Shown: positions 7,471-20,499 of the stretch, in pieces
How the letters are laid out: every line of letters begins with the position of its first letter
Position numbering within the stretch: the stretch's first letter is position 1
NCBI GenBank assembly: GCA_965261735.1
Contig: OZ253470.1
Coordinates: 640,001 to 704,000, forward strand
From: Alphaproteobacteria bacterium
GTDB taxonomy: Bacteria; Pseudomonadota; Alphaproteobacteria; SHVV01
Direction of reading: 5' to 3'
DNA: 64,000 nt
Translations under genes and position numbers: made by a program
Notes under the pieces: model-generated
The model's input: only the letters and a program-made list of their open reading frames with translations
Database searches by the model: none
Told to the model about the DNA's origin: nothing

Positions 7471-7589
7471 TCCGGCGCCGACCGAGCCTGCGGCCCGGTT
7501 GACCCGGTGGGTCAACAGGCACCCCCCCCTGTGGACTACCAGGATAACCTCCATCCAGCCTCCTGAAGGGGTCATCTGTGGACGCCTCC

Positions 7590-7846
7590 GTTGATGCAAG
7601 CATTTCTTTGAACGTCTTGGGGCATGTGGTCAGGTGCGGTCATCTGTCCGGCCTCATGATGCGGCTGGTTTGACGCCGCAGGCCCCTATGGAGATGTGCA
7701 GACCGGGTCCAAGATCAATTTTGCGGGCTTGAAAGCCCCTTGACCCACCGCTGGTTTTCCCGATCCCGTCTCGATTGACCGTTTGCCCTTACTCGTCCTC
7801 CGACCTGCTCACACCCCCGACGTCATTCCGCGAGGCTGCCGCCGTG
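7590..7846 (-). ncRNA. Putative bridge RNA/seekRNA of IS1111 element A
   Basis: ~260-nt non-coding region 3' of the recombinase; scaffold shared with 16377-16628; loop segments match own target and donor junction. Confidence 0.75.
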
Positions 7847-8875
7847 TCAGGCAGCAGCCGGCGCGAAACCTCGGTAGGTCTCCTTGCGTGTCATGAGCGC
7901 CCAGACGATGCGCGCCATCTTGTTGGCCAGCGCCACCGCGACAAGCATTCGCGGCTTGCGCGCCAGCATCCTGGCCAGCCAGGGGTCGTTCGTTTCGCCG
8001 CGACGAACCGCCGAGCTGACGACAGCCATGGCGCCGATGATCAAGAGGCGCCTCAGATCGCGTTGGCCCATCTTCGATATCCTGCCCAGCCGTGGCTTGC
8101 CGCCGGTCGTGTGCTGTCGCGGCACGAGGCCCAGCCAGGCAGAGAAGTCGCGGCCGCGCCGAAAGCTCTCCATCGGCGGCGCGAAGGCCTGAAGCGCCAT
8201 CGCGTTGATCGGCCCGATCCCTGGGATGGTCATGAGCCGTGCCGCCTGCTCGTCCTGACGCGCGCAGGCGCGGAGCTCCTTTTCCAATCCGCCGATCTTC
8301 GCATCGAGGTCAGCGATCTGACCGAGCAGAACGCCACCCAGCGCGCGGACCGCTCCCGGTAGTCCCGAACCCGGATCCTCGAGTGCCGATGCCAGCCGAC
8401 CGACATGAGCCGGTCCCTGCGGCGCGATGACGCCGAACTCTGCCAGGTGGCCACGTAGCGCGTTGATCGTCTGCGTGCGCTGGCGCACCAGAAGATCGCG
8501 CGTGTGGAACAGCATCGCTCTTGCCTGTTGCTCTTCCCCCTTCACCGCCACGAAGCGCATGGTCGGGCGCTGCGCCGCCTCGCAGATCGCCTCCGCGTCC
8601 GCCGCGTCGTTCTTCTGCCGCTTCACGAACGGCTTCACGTAGATCGGTGGGACCAACCTCACTTCGTGGCCGAGCTTCAAAATCTCCCGGCCCCAGTAGT
8701 GGGCGCTCGCACAGGCCTCCATCGCCACCACGCATCGCTGCTGCGCGCCGAGAATGTACAGCAGCCTCTCCCGGCTCACCTTCCTGCGGAACGCGACCGA
8801 ACCGTCCGCCCGAGCACCGTGAAGTTGAAAGCTGCGCTTCGCCAGATCGATCCCGATGATGTTAACCTGTTCCAT
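7847..8875 (-). CDS. IS110-family DEDD recombinase
   Basis: IGIDLAK, VAMEAC, KNDAADAEAI, LMTIPGIG, AWLGLVPRQHTTGGK, ALANKMAR; ATG at 8875 after GGAGG. Confidence 0.95.
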   Translation of the reverse strand: MEQVNIIGIDLAKRSFQLHGARADGSVAFRRKVSRERLLYILGAQQRCVVAMEACASAHYWGREILKLGHEVRLVPPIYVKPFVKRQKNDAADAEAICEAAQRPTMRFVAVKGEEQQARAMLFHTRDLLVRQRTQTINALRGHLAEFGVIAPQGPAHVGRLASALEDPGSGLPGAVRALGGVLLGQIADLDAKIGGLEKELRACARQDEQAARLMTIPGIGPINAMALQAFAPPMESFRRGRDFSAWLGLVPRQHTTGGKPRLGRISKMGQRDLRRLLIIGAMAVVSSAVRRGETNDPWLARMLARKPRMLVAVALANKMARIVWALMTRKETYRGFAPAAA

Positions 8876-8963
8876 GGACGCCTCCTCCTCCGGGGGTTGG
8901 TCACGCCACCACCTTGGCACACTGCGATGCCGTCGGGAGGAGGCGTCCACTCCATCAATTTTG

Positions 8964-14342: not shown

Positions 14343-15736
14343 GGTTGTGTCTCGAAAGTGGTGGAAATTGGTTTTGGCGCCTCTCCGAGCGGGTTGAGTT
14401 TTGCGGCGGTCAGGCTGCGCGGTCAAGGGTTTCGTCGGCGATTAGCTGATCGAGGGTTTCCCATCCATTGACTTTGCGCATCTGGATTTGGCCGGAAGCG
14501 AGGAGTGCCCAGAGGAGCATCGGCACTGTTTCGGGACACGGCAGCACGGTCTGTGTTTTGATCCGGCGCTTGAACTCCTCGTTGAGACGCTCAATGGCGT
14601 TGGTCGTTCGGGCTGATTTCCATTGGCTCTTGGACAGGCGCGTGAAGGTAAAGAGCTTGTCGCCCGCTTCTGCGAGGCTGTCCGCGACGGCCCTGCATTT
14701 CAGCCGCCACTTGCGGACAAACGCCTTGCGGCGGGTTTCCACCTCGGAGGCAGTGTCAGCATAGATCATATCGCGGTAATCTTCGCTCAGCTCGTCATGC
14801 ATGTGTTTGGGAGCATGACCCAGAAGGTTGCGGTGCTTGTGCACGGTGCAGCGTTGAACGGGAAGGTCATCGCCCCAAAGCGCCGACAGAGCCGCCTCCA
14901 GTCCCGGCGCGCCATCGACGATGACAAACCCGGGCCGTTTCAGTCCACGCGCATCAAGGTCGTCGAGGAACTGGCGCCACGCCGCCTGGCTTTCTCCGCC
15001 CATATTCCCGATCGAAAGCAAGACCTTCTGGCCATCCCGGCGCACCCCTATAGCCGCGAGAACCGAGATGTTGGTGGCCTTGCGGTCCAGTCGGGTCTTG
15101 ATCACAGTGCCGTCAAGGATCAGCCGAACGATATCCTCATCCGCGAGGCCACGGCTGCACCAGGCGTCCCAATCGACCTTCACCTTGCGCCACGCCCGGC
15201 TCACAACGTCCTTGCTCACAGCACCCCGGAAGAGCCCGAACAGCGCGCGTTTCACCCGCCGCGTGTTGGTTCCGGACAGATACACCGAAGCGATCAGCGC
15301 CTCGGCCTTTCTGGTCAGCCGCTGGTAGCGCGGCAGCGCCCGCGAACGCCATTCCGACGCCCGACCGTCTTCCTCAACGATCCGCGCACGCGGCACGCTC
15401 ACCCTCTCGGTCCCGAATGTCCCCGTCAGTTGCCGCTCCCGGTGCCCGTTCCGATACCCTTGCCGAAGCGCGTCCTCTCGACCGTATCGGCAGCGCCCGA
15501 GAAACTGCGCAAGTTCCTCCTCAAAAACGGCCTCGATCGTGGATCTGATGTTCTCCCGCAGCCGGTCCTCGATCGGATCATAGCCGGCGTCATTGGCCAG
15601 TAGCGAAAGCGCGGAAGTCTCGGTAGTGTTCTTCATGGCGTGATCTCCTTGGCGGTGCTAGCCGCCGATTGGGTGGTTGTCTTGTCACCCGGAGATTACG
15701 CCATCCTCAAATTTCCACCACTTTCGAGACACAGCC
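14343..15736 (-). mobile_element. IS256-family element type 1
   Basis: IR GG(T/C)TGTGTCTCGAAAGTGGTGGAAATT; 8-bp TSD CGGACATG (14335-14342, 15737-15744). Confidence 0.95.
14410..15636 (-). CDS. IS256-family (Mutator) transposase
   Basis: YRNGHRER, LILDG, IVDGAPGL, QRCTVHKHRN, TTNAIERLNEEFKRR. Confidence 0.95.
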   Translation of the reverse strand: MKNTTETSALSLLANDAGYDPIEDRLRENIRSTIEAVFEEELAQFLGRCRYGREDALRQGYRNGHRERQLTGTFGTERVSVPRARIVEEDGRASEWRSRALPRYQRLTRKAEALIASVYLSGTNTRRVKRALFGLFRGAVSKDVVSRAWRKVKVDWDAWCSRGLADEDIVRLILDGTVIKTRLDRKATNISVLAAIGVRRDGQKVLLSIGNMGGESQAAWRQFLDDLDARGLKRPGFVIVDGAPGLEAALSALWGDDLPVQRCTVHKHRNLLGHAPKHMHDELSEDYRDMIYADTASEVETRRKAFVRKWRLKCRAVADSLAEAGDKLFTFTRLSKSQWKSARTTNAIERLNEEFKRRIKTQTVLPCPETVPMLLWALLASGQIQMRKVNGWETLDQLIADETLDRAA

Positions 15737-16122
15737 CGGACATGCCGGGCGTCTGACTGGCGACCAGATAAGCGGCCCAGAACCAGACGTTCAGCGGAGT
15801 GTGGCTACGCTCCATCACTGTTCCCACCGTCAGCCCGGTGTTCTTGGCGGCACTTGCGGCAGCGCAGGACGCCAGGGCGGTTTTCAAAGTGGAACGGCTC
15901 TCCCGCCGTGCCGCAGTGCGGGCAGGCAAAGCCGTCTCCCCAGCGGGCTTTCTCCAGGTAGGCGGCGCAGGCCGCATCATCGGGGAAAAGTCGCTGGAAC
16001 TCGGGTAGCGAATGCGGGAATGGGAGATCGGCGCGGTCGAGAACATCCATGGCGCGCTCCCCTATATCCGGGTTGCGCCCATTCTAGCCCTAGTGGGTGT
16101 GGGTGTAAACCGGATAAGCAAG

Positions 16123-16137
16123 GTTCATTTTATGTTC
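16123..16137 (+). promoter_or_regulatory. Alphaproteobacterial LexA (SOS) box
   Basis: GTTC-ATTTTAT-GTTC fits GTTC-N7-GTTC, upstream of the umuD remnant. Confidence 0.75.
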
Positions 16138-16376
16138 GTATAAACACTGAGGGTCGCCTCCTTGCAGCGTTTCACAGATCAGCCCACCGAACTCGCCCTG
16201 CCGCTCTACGGCTCCAGGGTACCCGCCGGATGTATCTGTTCGGCGAAGCTGTGGAATCGGCCGGCCCGCGGGAGAAGTGGGCGATCACAGCCGCCTCGTT
16301 TGTTGAAACAGCGCTCATTCCCTGCCTCCCCCCATTCGGACGTCCACGGTTTGAACGAACGTGTGTGGACGCCCCC

Positions 16377-16628
16377 GTTGATGCAAGCAGTTTTTGGTCG
16401 GCTCGGTGCATGCGGTCAGGTGCTGTCGTGTGTCCGGCCTCTCTATGCGGCAGATGACACGCCGCGGGCCCGTATGGAGATACGCGGATTGGGTCCAAAT
16501 CGGTTACGCGAGCTTGAAAGCTCTCCGTTCGGATGCTGGTTTTCCCAACCCGGTCTCGTTGACCTTTGCCCTTACCTGTCCTCCGTCCTGCCCACATCCC
16601 CGACGGCTTCCCGCACTTCGCCGTTCTC
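16377..16628 (-). ncRNA. Putative bridge RNA/seekRNA of IS1111 element B
   Basis: Same scaffold as 7590-7846 with a compensatory stem change (GGGC/GCCC vs GAGC/GCTC) and different guide segments. Confidence 0.75.
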
Positions 16629-17651
16629 TCAGGCGGTGGCGGGAGCCCGGTAGCTCTCCTTCTTCGTCAGTAGCGCCCAGACGATGCGCGCCATCCTGTT
16701 GGCCAGCGCCACCGCGACGAGCATCCTCGGCTTGCGCGCCAGCATCCCGGCCAGCCAGGGGTCCGTCGTCACGCCGCGCCGAACCGCCCAGCGGACCACA
16801 GTCATCGCGCCTGTGATCAGCAGCCGTCTCAGATCGCGCTGGCCCATCTTCGATATCTTGCCCAGCTTCGGCTTGCCGCCGGTCGTGTGCTGACGCGGCA
16901 CGAGGCCGAGCCAAGCGGAGAAGTCGCGGCCGCGCCGGAAACTCTCCATCGGCGGTGCGAAGGCCTGGATTGCCATCGCGCTGATCGGCCCGATCCCCGG
17001 CACGCTCATCAGGCGCCTCGCCTCCTCATCCTGCCGTGCTCTCACGTGGACCTCCCTCTCCAGGCCCGCAATCTTCGCATCGAGGCCGGCGATCTGCTCA
17101 AGCAGAAGGCCGGCCAGCTCGCGGACCGCTTCCGGCAACCTCGAAGCCGGTCCCCCAAGCGCCGAGGCCAGCCGGCCGACATGAGCCGGCCCCTGCGGGG
17201 CAATGACACCGAACTCCGCCAGATGGCCGCGCAGCGCATTAATCGTCTGGGTGCGCTGGCGCACCAGAAGATCGCGCGTCCGGAACAGCATGCCCCGAGC
17301 CTGCTGTTCCTCCGTCTTCACAGCCACAAAGCGCATGGTCGGCCGCGACGACGCCTCGCAGATCGCCTCCGCATCCGACGCGTCGTTCTTTTGCCGCTTG
17401 ACGTACGCTTTGACGTAGATCGGTGGGACCAGTCGCACCGCATGGCCGAGACTGCCGATCTCCCGGCCCCAATGGTGCGCGCCGCCGCACGCCTCCATCG
17501 CCACCGTGCAGCGTGGCTGCGCAGCCACAAAGTCCAACAGCTTCGCCCGGCTCAGCTTCTTGCGGAACGCAACCGACCCATCCGCCCGCGCACCGTGCAG
17601 CTGAAAGCTGTTCTTCGCCAGATCGATCCCGATCATGTGAACCTGTTCCAT
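16629..17651 (-). CDS. IS110-family DEDD recombinase
   Basis: IGIDLAK, AMEAC, KNDASDAEAI, VPGIG, AWLGLVP; close paralogue of 7847-8875. Confidence 0.95.
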   Translation of the reverse strand: MEQVHMIGIDLAKNSFQLHGARADGSVAFRKKLSRAKLLDFVAAQPRCTVAMEACGGAHHWGREIGSLGHAVRLVPPIYVKAYVKRQKNDASDAEAICEASSRPTMRFVAVKTEEQQARGMLFRTRDLLVRQRTQTINALRGHLAEFGVIAPQGPAHVGRLASALGGPASRLPEAVRELAGLLLEQIAGLDAKIAGLEREVHVRARQDEEARRLMSVPGIGPISAMAIQAFAPPMESFRRGRDFSAWLGLVPRQHTTGGKPKLGKISKMGQRDLRRLLITGAMTVVRWAVRRGVTTDPWLAGMLARKPRMLVAVALANRMARIVWALLTKKESYRAPATA

Positions 17652-17819
17652 GGACGCCCCCTTCCTCGCTTGGCGTTAACAACACCGCCAACCTGGCACA
17701 TCGCGATGCCGTCGGGAGGGGCGTCCACCCCATCGGTTGCCGCCGGATTTCCAAGCCCCGCCGACGACCATATCGAGGGCAAGCTTGATCTCAATCTGCA
17801 TCTGATCCGCCCGCGCCAC

Positions 17820-18062
17820 GTCCGTCGCCGCGAGGCCTGCCGCCCGCTCCGCATCCGCTGCCAGGGATGGATCGAGCAGATCGCGGTGCTCTACCGCCTG
17901 AACGAGGCGCGTCTGGAGCATTACGACCCCGGCCTTGAGCGCCAGACGCCAGCGTTCGATGCGGCGCAGGGCAGGCTGAAGGAGGCGCTCGGCGGCCTGT
18001 TCGCGGAGGCCGAACAGGAGCTCGCCGGCCTGCCCGACCAAGCGCGCGAGGGCAAGGCGCTG
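17820..18062 (+). pseudogene. IS66-like transposase fragment
   Basis: WIEQIAVLYRLNEARL...GKAL resembles the IS66 TnpC mid-region. Confidence 0.5.
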
Positions 18063-19105
18063 CCCGCAACTGTCCGAGTAACGCTGAGGAGGAAATGGCA
18101 TCCGCAAACAATCAGGATGTCACGAAGGTCGCGGACCGACACCGGGAGCGGACCGCGAACCTTACTTCTGGGCAGGACCACGATCAGGCGCGAACGTCCC
18201 CTCGAAGGTGCTTTCGGGAGCGCCCCGACTGCCCTCGACGAGGACGACTGGATCGCGCGCTTTCCGGATGTTGTTCGGCGCGAGGGTTCGACGCTGATCA
18301 GGACGCCAACTTATTGCTTGCCTATCCGGTTAACGCCCATGACCGCTACATGTAGGGTGCCGCCACTCTCCCGAGTAAAGCTCGGCATAGGTTGGAGCAG
18401 AGGTGTCGCCCGCGATGCCGAGCAATGAGCGGAAGGCGTTGAACGGGTAGAACCGCCTGTTGAAGCGGAAGGTGAACTCGTTGAGGTAGGCTTGTAGGTG
18501 CTGGTGGCTAACGCCGTGGTGGATACCGATCAGCCACGTCTTCAGGTTGGCGAAAACCAGATGGATGATCGGCAGGTATTGCTCGGCAACCTCTGGATCA
18601 CCACACTCGGCAACAGCGAAGTGCTCATAGCCGCGCTTACCGAGGCCAGCATAGCCGCTCCAATCGTCAGTAACGATCAGCGATCGCGGCGCGACGGTGC
18701 TCTCGACGAACCCACAGAGCGACTCGGCGCTACGGTCGAGCACGACGGCGAGCCGAACGCGTCCGGCATAGCGTCCGTCTTTCCGGTTGTCGAGCTTGGT
18801 GCCCGGCTTTCGATGACGCACCTCGATGGCACAGGAGACGGGAACCTTGTGGTGAACACCACGGCCTTCCCCACGCGTTCGCCCGCCAACCCAGGTTTCG
18901 TCCACCTCAACATGGTTCTTGGGCTGTCCACCGATCCTGTCTTGGTTGGGCCGCACCATGCCCGAGCGGAGCTTGTGGAGAATTTGAAAGGCCGTCTCGT
19001 AGCGCGAAAGACCAAGTTGCCGCTGAAACTGCACGGCGGACATGCCGGGCGTCTGACTGGCGACCAGATAAGCGGCCCAGAACCAGACGTTCAGCGGAGT
19101 GTGGC

Positions 19106-20499
19106 GGCTGTGTCTCGAAAGTGGTGGAAATTTGAGGATGGCGTAATCTCCGGGTGACAAGACAACCACCCAATCGGCGGCTAGCACCGCCAAGGAGATC
19201 ACGCCATGAAGAACACTACCGAGACTTCCGCGCTTTCGCTACTGGCCAATGACGCCGGCTATGATCCGCTCGAGGACCGGCTGCGGGAGAACATCAGATC
19301 CACGATCGAGGCCGTTTTTGAGGAGGAACTTGCGCAGTTTCTCGGGCGCTGCCGATACGGTCGAGAGGACGCGCTTCGGCAAGGGTATCGGAACGGGCAC
19401 CGGGAGCGGCAACTGACGGGGACATTCGGGACCGAGAGGGTGAGCGTGCCGCGTGCGCGGATCGTTGAGGAAGACGGTCGGGCGTCGGAATGGCGTTCGC
19501 GGGCGCTGCCGCGCTACCAGCGGCTGACCAGAAAGGCCGAGGCGCTGATCGCTTCGGTGTATCTGTCCGGAACCAACACGCGGCGGGTGAAACGCGCGCT
19601 GTTCGGGCTCTTCCGGGGTGCTGTGAGCAAGGACGTTGTGAGCCGGGCGTGGCGCAAGGTGAAGGTCGATTGGGACGCCTGGTGCAGCCGTGGCCTCGCG
19701 GATGAGGATATCGTTCGGCTGATCCTTGACGGCACTGTGATCAAGACCCGACTGGACCGCAAGGCCACCAACATCTCGGTTCTCGCGGCTATAGGGGTGC
19801 GCCGGGATGGCCAGAAGGTCTTGCTTTCGATCGGGAATATGGGCGGAGAAAGCCAGGCGGCGTGGCGCCAGTTCCTCGACGACCTTGATGCGCGTGGACT
19901 GAAACGGCCCGGGTTTGTCATCGTCGATGGCGCGCCGGGACTGGAGGCGGCTCTGTCGGCGCTTTGGGGCGATGACCTTCCCGTTCAACGCTGCACCGTG
20001 CACAAGCACCGCAACCTTCTGGGTCATGCTCCCAAACACATGCATGACGAGCTGAGCGAAGATTACCGCGATATGATCTATGCCGACACTGCCTCCGAGG
20101 TGGAAACCCGCCGCAAGGCGTTTGTCCGCAAGTGGCGGCTGAAATGCAGGGCCGTCGCGGACAGCCTCGCAGAAGCGGGCGACAAGCTCTTTACCTTCAC
20201 GCGCCTGTCCAAGAGCCAATGGAAATCAGCCCGAACGACCAACGCCATTGAGCGTCTCAACGAGGAGTTCAAGCGCCGGATCAAAACACAGACCGTGCTG
20301 CCGTGTCCCGAAACAGTGCCGATGCTCCTCTGGGCACTCCTCGCTTCCGGCCAAATCCAGATGCGCAAAGTCGATGGATGGGAAACCCTCGATCAGCTAA
20401 TCGCCGACGAAACCCTTGACCGCGCAGCCTGACCGCCGCAAAACTCAACCCGCTCGGAGAGGCGCCAAAACCAATTTCCACCACTTTCGAGACACAACC
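19106..20499 (+). mobile_element. IS256-family element type 1, second copy
   Basis: Same IRs as 14343-15736; 9-bp TSD GAGTGTGGC (19097-19105, 20500-20508). Confidence 0.95.
19206..20432 (+). CDS. IS256-family transposase
   Basis: 408 aa, two substitutions relative to 14410-15636. Confidence 0.95.
   Translation: MKNTTETSALSLLANDAGYDPLEDRLRENIRSTIEAVFEEELAQFLGRCRYGREDALRQGYRNGHRERQLTGTFGTERVSVPRARIVEEDGRASEWRSRALPRYQRLTRKAEALIASVYLSGTNTRRVKRALFGLFRGAVSKDVVSRAWRKVKVDWDAWCSRGLADEDIVRLILDGTVIKTRLDRKATNISVLAAIGVRRDGQKVLLSIGNMGGESQAAWRQFLDDLDARGLKRPGFVIVDGAPGLEAALSALWGDDLPVQRCTVHKHRNLLGHAPKHMHDELSEDYRDMIYADTASEVETRRKAFVRKWRLKCRAVADSLAEAGDKLFTFTRLSKSQWKSARTTNAIERLNEEFKRRIKTQTVLPCPETVPMLLWALLASGQIQMRKVDGWETLDQLIADETLDRAA

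Follow-up and report, generated by a model that had tools for sequence, protein, structure and literature searches.

The stretch analysed here (the window) comprises 64,000 nucleotides (nt) of contig OZ253470.1 from an alphaproteobacterium, positions 640,001 to 704,000. Within the remains of a umuD gene it harbors an insertion sequence (IS) of the IS1111 group, termed B, and it also holds a sister element, A. B is composed of a recombinase gene followed by a long 3' non-coding region, in which a conserved RNA scaffold with two target guides and a donor guide is predicted. The guides of B for target and donor covary with the flanks and the right end of B itself, and the pattern holds across the family, beyond chance. 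The two elements and the parts of B are listed below in window positions.

16361..17734, minus strand: IS1111-group insertion sequence B, 1374 base pairs (bp), with ends placed where the flanks of 14 copies diverge; a contig skips exactly 1374 bases
17652..17734, minus strand: short left end of B, 83 nt, with a 6-nt terminal extension (GATGGG) and then the subterminal inverted repeat, 17718-17728
16629..17651, minus strand: transposase/recombinase gene of B, 340 amino acids (aa), identified by Pfam, NCBIfam and PDB matches and by a C-terminal motif
16361..16628, minus strand: long 3' non-coding region of B, 268 nt, with the right-end subterminal repeat at 16365-16375 and a 4-nt extension (ACAC in the sense of the transposase gene)
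7574..8956, minus strand: sister element A, 81% identical to B in protein and 80% in DNA, with the same scaffold and different guides and ends

On the plus strand, the ends of B read CGAAC/GTGTGTGG and CCCCATC/GGTTGCC, the slash marking here and below the join between element and flank or the insertion point of an empty site. The longer readings are TTTGAACGAAC/GTGTGTGGACGCCCCC at the low-coordinate end (16350-16376) and GGGGCGTCCACCCCATC/GGTTGCCGCCGGA at the high-coordinate end (17718-17747). A common CG leaves the boundary ambiguous, 16360-17733 and 16362-17735 being equally possible, and the span 16356-17741 given by the original prediction, an earlier reading of this DNA, is B plus 5 and 7 flanking bases. 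The recombinase matches the Pfam domains DEDD_Tnp_IS110 (PF01548, E 1.7e-15) in its N-terminal part and Transposase_20 (PF02371, E 3.7e-22) in its C-terminal part, and reaches 321 bits against NCBIfam NF033542, "IS110 family RNA-guided transposase" (cutoff 140). Its matches among solved recombinases in the PDB are ISCro4 (E 4.5e-13) and IS621 (E 4.7e-10). A motif of the C-terminal domain, GL-P----S(t)G, marks the IS1111 group (PMC11187229); the translation of B carries GLVPRQHTTG at this place, and its TG aligns with the SG of ISCro4. The 11-bp subterminal inverted repeats, GTGGACGCCCC and GGGGCGTCCAC (17718-17728 and 16365-16375), with a 6-nt left and a 4-nt right extension, agree with the 7-17 bp subterminal repeats and short extensions of the IS1111 group. 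Of the two non-coding regions, the one downstream of the transposase gene is the longer (268 nt vs 83 nt upstream), and the overall layout of ends and non-coding regions is that given for the group in PMC11187229 and PMC11208160. Insertion is site-specific and leaves no target duplication, only CG being common to both junctions at 13 distinct sites. The segment 16361-17734 is very probably an intact copy of an IS1111-group element (IS110 family) with a DEDD recombinase, expected to use a guide RNA (bridge RNA or seekRNA) from its 3' non-coding region.

The predicted RNA comprises the following parts.

16414..16564, minus strand: predicted bridge/seek RNA scaffold, an outer stem (GGUCA with UGACC) around the target-loop arm and a second arm, from RNAalifold on 31 relatives
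16524..16534, minus strand: 5' target guide, RNA AUCCGAACGGA, of which the CCGAACGG portion is predicted to pair with the target top strand CC/GTTCGG; from the A/B alignment, the family test and the site logo
16510..16523, minus strand: hairpin between the target guides, GAGC UUUCAA GCUC, with a compensatory change relative to A
16499..16509, minus strand: 3' target guide, RNA GCGUAACCGAU, in the same sense as the left flank CGTAACC/G and predicted to pair with the bottom strand; from the A/B alignment, the family test, the logo and a relative with AAGC
16426..16433, minus strand: donor guide, RNA ACACACGA, the right-end terminus plus the first left-end bases; from 11 of 12 distinct pairs

RNAalifold analysis of 31 distinct sequences yields 28 pairs, with compensatory changes in 8; the second stem pair of the inter-guide hairpin changes on both sides in 15 of the 31. 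In the target loop, the 5' strand is complementary to the target top strand, beginning two bases ahead of the join and extending into the right flank, while the 3' strand reads in the same sense as the left flank and continues over the join, so that the crossover dinucleotide is included in both. The top-strand match thus lies 5' of the bottom-strand match. Two short matches to the top and bottom strands, overlapping at the insertion point and flanking a hairpin in a conserved fold, are what defines a seekRNA, and B displays them. Contigs from two RNA-library runs of one study (X15 and X16) end at 16414, the 3' edge of the predicted outer stem, where the DNA run continues; as contigs of a single study, they hint no more than weakly at a 3' end of the RNA.

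Comparison with A shows where the scaffold varies. Aligned in RNA sense, the non-coding regions of A and B have 85% identity, and the differences cluster in the two target guides, a hairpin pair and the donor guide.

5' loop strand: B AUCCGAACGGA; A GGUGGGUCAAG
Hairpin stem: B GAGC with GCUC; A GGGC with GCCC (compensatory)
3' loop strand: B GCGUAACCGAU; A GCAAAAUUGAU
Donor stretch: B ACACACGA; A ACAGAUGA

The original prediction had described B as a sister IS1111 built on the RNA scaffold of A, and this description holds. The plus-strand strings on which it relied are present at TCGGTT (16500-16505), GAGC-TTGAAA-GCTC (16510-16523), CCGTTCG (16525-16531) and TCGTGTGT (16426-16433); they fall where A differs within an otherwise conserved scaffold, and the stem change it had called compensatory (GAGC and GCTC vs GGGC and GCCC) is so. 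In gene orientation, flanks and ends read CGTAACC-like/GATGGGG...CACACAC/GTTCG for B and CAAAATT/GATGGAG...CACAGAT/GACCCC for the window copy of A, which occupies a site also found in other genomes (AAAATT/GACCCC). The longest identical runs of the B guides are 7 and 7 on the B site vs 3 and 3 on the A site; those of the A guides are 10 and 7 on the A site vs 4 and 4 on the B site.

The same relation was assessed in 78 related loci from other genomes (70-99% protein identity), which together with the window copies of A and B make 80 records. Both ends could be parsed in 70 of them. After removal of L019 and L041, with a mis-parsed right end, and of five records with no parsable loop, the family test set contains 63 loci with 36 distinct guide pairs. 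Mean longest identical runs are as follows.

3' guide against left flank: own 8.39; other 3.94
5' guide against right flank: own 6.56; other 3.35

The cognate site is the top-scoring one of 36 for 28 of the 36 guide types, and strictly the best for 24; high non-cognate scores come from relatives with a common target. The donor stretch equals the last 6 right-end bases plus G in 11 of 12 distinct pairs, which cover 10 right-end variants (67 loci). Together with the run scores of A and B, these counts bear out the earlier claim that the guides covary with both target and donor. Alternatively, the recombinase protein itself might read the target, the matches in the non-coding region being by-products, such as target DNA retained from past imprecise excision. 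The A and B proteins do differ at 19% of residues, but the element at locus L003, with 96% protein identity and a single guide base different, sits at a matching site that is also one base different. Moreover, the guides occupy fixed positions of a conserved, covarying scaffold in 36 types, and for four IS1111 members the RNA was found by experiment to be needed and reprogrammable (PMC11187229), all of which makes reading by the protein scarcely credible.

The guides can further be compared with the 13 distinct B sites, which in gene orientation give the consensus G[T or C]AACC/GnT.

-6: G in 11 of 13
-5: T in 5, C in 5, G in 3 (C would make a G-U pair with the guide)
-4: A in 13 of 13
-3: A in 11 of 13
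-2 and -1: C and C, 13 of 13 each
+1: G in 13 of 13
+2: any base; A in four sites
+3: T in 11 of 13
+4: C in 6 of 13
+5: G in 9 of 13
+6: G in 8 of 13

To the left of the join, AACC/G is found in 11 sites and AGCC/G in the other 2. The window site, GCAACC/GTTCG, has about 11 contiguous paired positions including one wobble, which places it among the better B sites. Four more B-type sites in two other genomes carry AACC in all four and GTTCGG in three. Judged from these alignments, the supported pairing is CC/GTTCGG and (G)CGTAACC/G. The outer AUC of the 5' guide is unsupported: the bases that it predicts at +7 and +8 match in 1 and 4 of the 13 sites, and the full-guide target of the original prediction was over-extended on the CGAAC side. 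No unoccupied instance of this exact predicted target, or of its 10- to 12-nt sub-strings, exists in the genome; the 9-mer AACCGTTCG occurs 32 times.

Several observations weigh against this reading of the guides. The 5' guide accounts for under half of the 13 sites: GTTCG stands to the right of the join in only 5, and the other eight start with GGT (3), GAT (3), GAC (1) or GGG (1). Four of the five A copies (genome positions 3421880, 4174615, 4347337 and 440844) lie in a short repeat, the loci having in common just about 60-80 bp of left flank and 40-45 bp of right flank; there, the 3' guide of A fits well, but by hand comparison its 5' guide fits at 6 of 10 positions only. An Rfam search of 16000-18000 with E up to 1 matched no family. 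Folded as a single sequence, B pairs its two guide strands with each other, and is mildly more stable than shuffled sequences (z -2.27; -1.55, weak, for A); with guide strands self-paired and weak z-scores, single-sequence folds were set aside for the alignment-based structure. RNA-library runs X15-X17 have contigs over B, a type of data unable to show transcription, strand or ends. Three candidates for a left-end donor guide, namely a conserved CUCCAU stretch, the loop of the second hairpin and the AUAGAGA strand, show no covariation with the left end; because the terminus of that end, GATGG, hardly varies across the family, covariation is uninformative on this point.

The lopsided sites also bear on how the target may be chosen. 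The original prediction had read the window site as partially mismatched, with tolerance outside a core of about 9 nt. Tolerance is real, but larger than it had supposed and one-sided (AACC/G in 11 of 13 vs GTTCG in 5 of 13), and the CGAAC/GGTT that it expected at other B sites is found by halves, GGTT in 11 of the 13 and CGAAC in 5. Site choice might accordingly depend mainly on the 3' guide, together with the CG crossover and T at position +3, with only a small contribution of the 5' guide, or a second pathway might operate; in that event, the 3' guide would read the sites with GAT on the right through its GAU tail, a sequence that matches the left end of B as well. Such a variant of the mechanism, in the same kind of element, fits the four sites with A at +2 (the guide reads ...CCGAU) and the poorer match of the 5' guide family-wide (6.56 vs 8.39). 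The title of a preprint (10.1101/2025.10.25.684509) reports two RNA-guided pathways in an IS110 element. ISEc21, a different element of the IS110 group, moves with as few as 3 right-side consensus bases (PMC11187229). Opposed to such a variant are the GTTCGG in three of the four B-type sites of the two other genomes and the many 5' guides of the family that match 9-10 nt of the right flank; the GAU tail, besides, is nearly constant in the family and may just pair with the opposite loop strand, as in the single-sequence fold. On balance, a dominant 3' guide is a serious possibility, though an unlikely one.

Two guides acting together remain the preferred model, with the crossover placed at CG. 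At all 13 distinct sites the left flank ends in C and the right flank starts with G, while B itself starts with G and ends with C, so the target and the circle junction have CG in common; this accounts for both the lack of a duplication and the two-letter ambiguity of the boundary. In A-type elements, and in L061 and L062, the left flank and the right end both finish in T, and the common dinucleotide is TG. As modelled, an RNA from the 3' non-coding region would work with the DEDD recombinase of B, its internal loop offering two guide strands on either side of the small hairpin. ACACACGA, which copies the right-end terminus and the first left-end bases, would read the joined ends of the excised circle, and the donor junction and target would cross over at CG. 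A, whose guides and right-end terminus differ and whose crossover dinucleotide is TG, would for these reasons land elsewhere. In the window, B would have entered the end repeat of an IS66-like miniature element already splitting umuD. The anatomy, copy number, site logo, covariation and empty site are shown here; that the RNA is made, bound by the enzyme and directs recombination is presumed from knowledge of the family.

The surroundings of B at the umuD locus are arranged as follows.

16162..16231, plus strand: umuD 5' fragment, continued at 17749-17811; the frame is restored only on removing 16232-17748
16232..16360, no strand assigned: left 129 bp of the 135-bp IS66-like miniature element, with the target of the IS in its right end repeat
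17735..17740, no strand assigned: the remaining 6 bp of the miniature element, GGTTGC, on the right of B
16224..16231, no strand assigned: CGCCGGAT, the 8-bp target-site duplication of the miniature element; second copy at 17741-17748

The umuD reading frame runs to RVPAG (16230) and resumes with FPSPADD (17749). Upstream of it, at 16123-16137, lies a GTTC-N7-GTTC box, a putative alphaproteobacterial SOS box. The original prediction held that restoration of the umuD frame fixes the empty site of B; yet removal of B alone leaves 143 extra bases, and the resulting CGAAC-GGTTGCC join is read out of frame to a stop. Removal of B, the 135-bp element and one copy of CGCCGGAT restores LPLYGSRVPAGFPSPADDHIEGKLDLNLHLIRP, colinear with the intact umuD paralogue at about 4182158-4181850 of the genome. 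The miniature element, not B, split umuD, and B very probably entered its end repeat afterwards. The umuD remnant stops at 17811, where identity to the paralogue ends; by eye, 17812-18100 appears in the same frame as a piece of another transposase.

The 135-bp element has imperfect terminal repeats and an exact 8-bp duplication, and its tips in the window are the variants GTATCTG and GCAACCG. Terminal repeats with GTAAGCG at their start, together with 8-bp duplications, are given as an IS66 signature in PMC11946415. An IS66-type end is found at genome position 234665, followed by open reading frames (ORFs) that, by eye, resemble IS66 TnpA and TnpB. Unoccupied homologues of the miniature element, at 3403464 and 1951921, end in CGAACGCTTAC and possess their own 8-bp duplications. 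These homologues, and one contig of DNA run X1, uphold the empty target CGAAC/GGTTGCC that umuD does not fix. In this contig (depth 12), 16359 is joined to 17734 with 1374 bases skipped, 2 ambiguous letters and 36 letters on the shorter side. A further joint, of 16222 to 17740, skips 1517 bases (= 135 + 1374 + 8) in two X1 contigs and in one contig of RNA-library run X17; the latter differs at 4 of 74 letters and may come from a relative or a paralogue.

A third homologue of the miniature element, at 3608999, has B at the same position as in the window. This second occupied copy would be expected if B had come into umuD as a passenger within the miniature element, in which event the window copy would be silent on target choice. 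The X1 joint, however, shows the locus with the miniature element and without B, the 36 letters of its shorter side extending either backward within the miniature element or forward into the 8-bp duplication and umuD, so that B entered, or precisely left, in place. Although this is a single contig of a run that may be the source sample, arrival as a passenger is highly improbable.

The relatives of B point to its origin. Ten loci of five element types (L003, L004, L005-8, L013-15 and L022) have a 3' guide with CGUAAGCG, that is, AAGC, and all ten sit at gtaagc/; their 5' guides differ along with the bases after the join. In L003, with a protein 96% identical to that of B, the loop is one base off that of B (AAGC for AACC), and none of the 13 B sites reads AAGC. 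From its guide and sites, B looks to be a one-base retargeted member (AAGC to AACC) of a lineage aimed at IS66-type end repeats (GTAAGC/G).

Other relatives have landed in members of their own family. L002 (L109, genome G003, about 1513-2890; 96% protein identity to B) has landed in the non-coding region of an A-type sister, where GGGCAAAC and GGTCAATCGAG of the sister's conserved RNA scaffold flank it. The guides of L002 fit this site: the 3' guide is GCGCAAACGAA, and the complement of the 5' strand is GC/GGTCAAAAT, compared with AC/GGTCAATCG in the site itself. The scaffold of L002 itself is one base short at the spot equivalent to its insertion. L019 (76%) and L041 are inserted in a fellow family member, within its right-end subterminal repeat (CACCGGGGGC/GTCCATAGAC), a site that their guides match. 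L001 (genome G002, from about 1860 onward), a 99%-identical copy of B, is interrupted just after CUCCAUAC of the RNA gene by an insert that starts, by eye, with an N-terminus resembling a second IS110-family transposase. As for copy number in these genomes, L003 and L002 are each present as one exact copy, and L001 as broken copies; the genome of L002 has three B-type copies in addition. Tentatively, and with the odds somewhat against it, the clade may reprogram its guides mainly against mobile elements. The ancestral aim would be the GTAAGC/G tips of IS66, sub-lineages would track variants of the IS66 repeat, B would be a one-base derivative, and L002 and L019 would have been re-aimed at the RNA scaffold and at the right end of a sister, respectively.

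The genome contains 14 full-length copies of B with at least 99.5% identity, one of which has its ORF split by a 1-nt deletion; the guide strings are identical in all 14. A is present in 5 copies (80-82% identity to B), alongside fragments and remoter relatives. Within a span of about 35 kilobases at 3.60-3.64 megabases there are five B copies; two share both flanks and a third shares one flank only, which suggests duplication and recombination between copies. In the window, the stretch around B is a pile-up of mobile elements. An inverted pair of near-identical 408-aa ORFs, by eye transposases of another IS family, brackets the region (14410-15636 on the minus strand, 19206-20432 on the plus strand), and another gene is present as repeated fragments (15696-16050 and 18330-19202). 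A scan of the linear B copy detects no sigma-70-like promoter inside the element on the transposase strand. A sigma-70-like match, TTGAGA-16 nt-TATGGT, is located at 17767-17794 (minus strand) in the umuD remnant, 33 nt outside the left end of B and pointing into the transposase gene (one found vs 0.1 expected in shuffled sequences); it could drive this copy from outside. In seekRNA and bridge RNA systems, a circular intermediate forms a promoter at its junction; by eye, a TTGCAT conserved in the right end of B would stand 17 nt before CAC/GAT across the joined ends.

Elements aimed at the ends of other transposons have precedents. Partridge and Hall are said to have described, in 2003, IS4321 and IS5075 as targeting the end repeats of Tn21-family transposons. 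Like B, these belong to the IS1111 group and prefer the terminal inverted repeat of another transposon family; in the B lineage, however, the repeat is of IS66 type (GTAAGCG...), and the guide of B is a one-base variant (AACC). ISEc21 of the IS110 group is likewise an RNA-guided IS aimed at another IS family, at a conserved part of IS3-family transposase genes (PMC11187229). It differs from B by its upstream non-coding region, its opposite guide order and a target inside a gene rather than in an end repeat. No report of IS1111 elements aimed at IS66 ends was found in a literature search limited to a titles-level listing.

The closest functional parallels are ISEc11 and ISXne4 (PMC11187229), which resemble B in the size of the recombinase (about 340 aa), in their subterminal inverted repeats and long 3' non-coding region, and in inserting without a duplication. 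Their seekRNAs also possess two short target matches, with the top-strand match 5' of the bottom-strand match. These two relatives, 72% identical, have a common stem, replaced guides and different targets, a "natural re-direction" that is the same phenomenon as A vs B (PMC11187229). B differs in its targets and host lineage, in the coexistence of B and A in one genome (14 and 5 copies) and in a covarying donor-end guide. With the IS621 bridge RNA, as described by Durrant et al. 2024 (PMC11208160) and Hiraizumi et al. 2024 (PMC11208158), B has in common bottom-left and top-right target guides, a joined-ends guide, a crossover dinucleotide within the pairings and a homologous recombinase. In IS621, by contrast, the RNA lies in the left end upstream of the gene and the core is CT, whereas in B the RNA is downstream, the guide order is reversed and the dinucleotide is CG (TG in A). 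These papers also describe two-loop bridge RNAs with a common core, with a right-end-encoded RNA predicted in 93% of IS1111 elements (PMC11208160), and handshake guides (PMC11208158), for which no positions could be assigned in B.

Natural re-direction among close relatives (ISEc11 and ISXne4, ISEc21 and ISMch6), experimental reprogramming and the guide order were reported by Siddiquee et al. 2024 (PMC11187229). The natural retargeting of these RNAs has hence been in print since 2024, and A vs B is another instance; the supplements of PMC11187229, PMC11208160 and PMC11208158 may already list relatives or targets of B. The value of the present case is that of supporting detail and of a source of orthologues, not of a discovery. 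It provides a natural data set for a family of RNA-guided recombinases now used in genome engineering, with two sisters in one genome and about 36 guide programmes. The data set includes a one-base guide change with a matching one-base site change, and a covarying donor guide in the less-studied IS1111 group; the site logo separates the guide positions enforced in nature (-4 to +1, and +3) from the rest. If the clade does reprogram its guides mainly against mobile elements, its guide RNAs would be weapons or homing devices in IS-against-IS competition, in which a single base can retarget.

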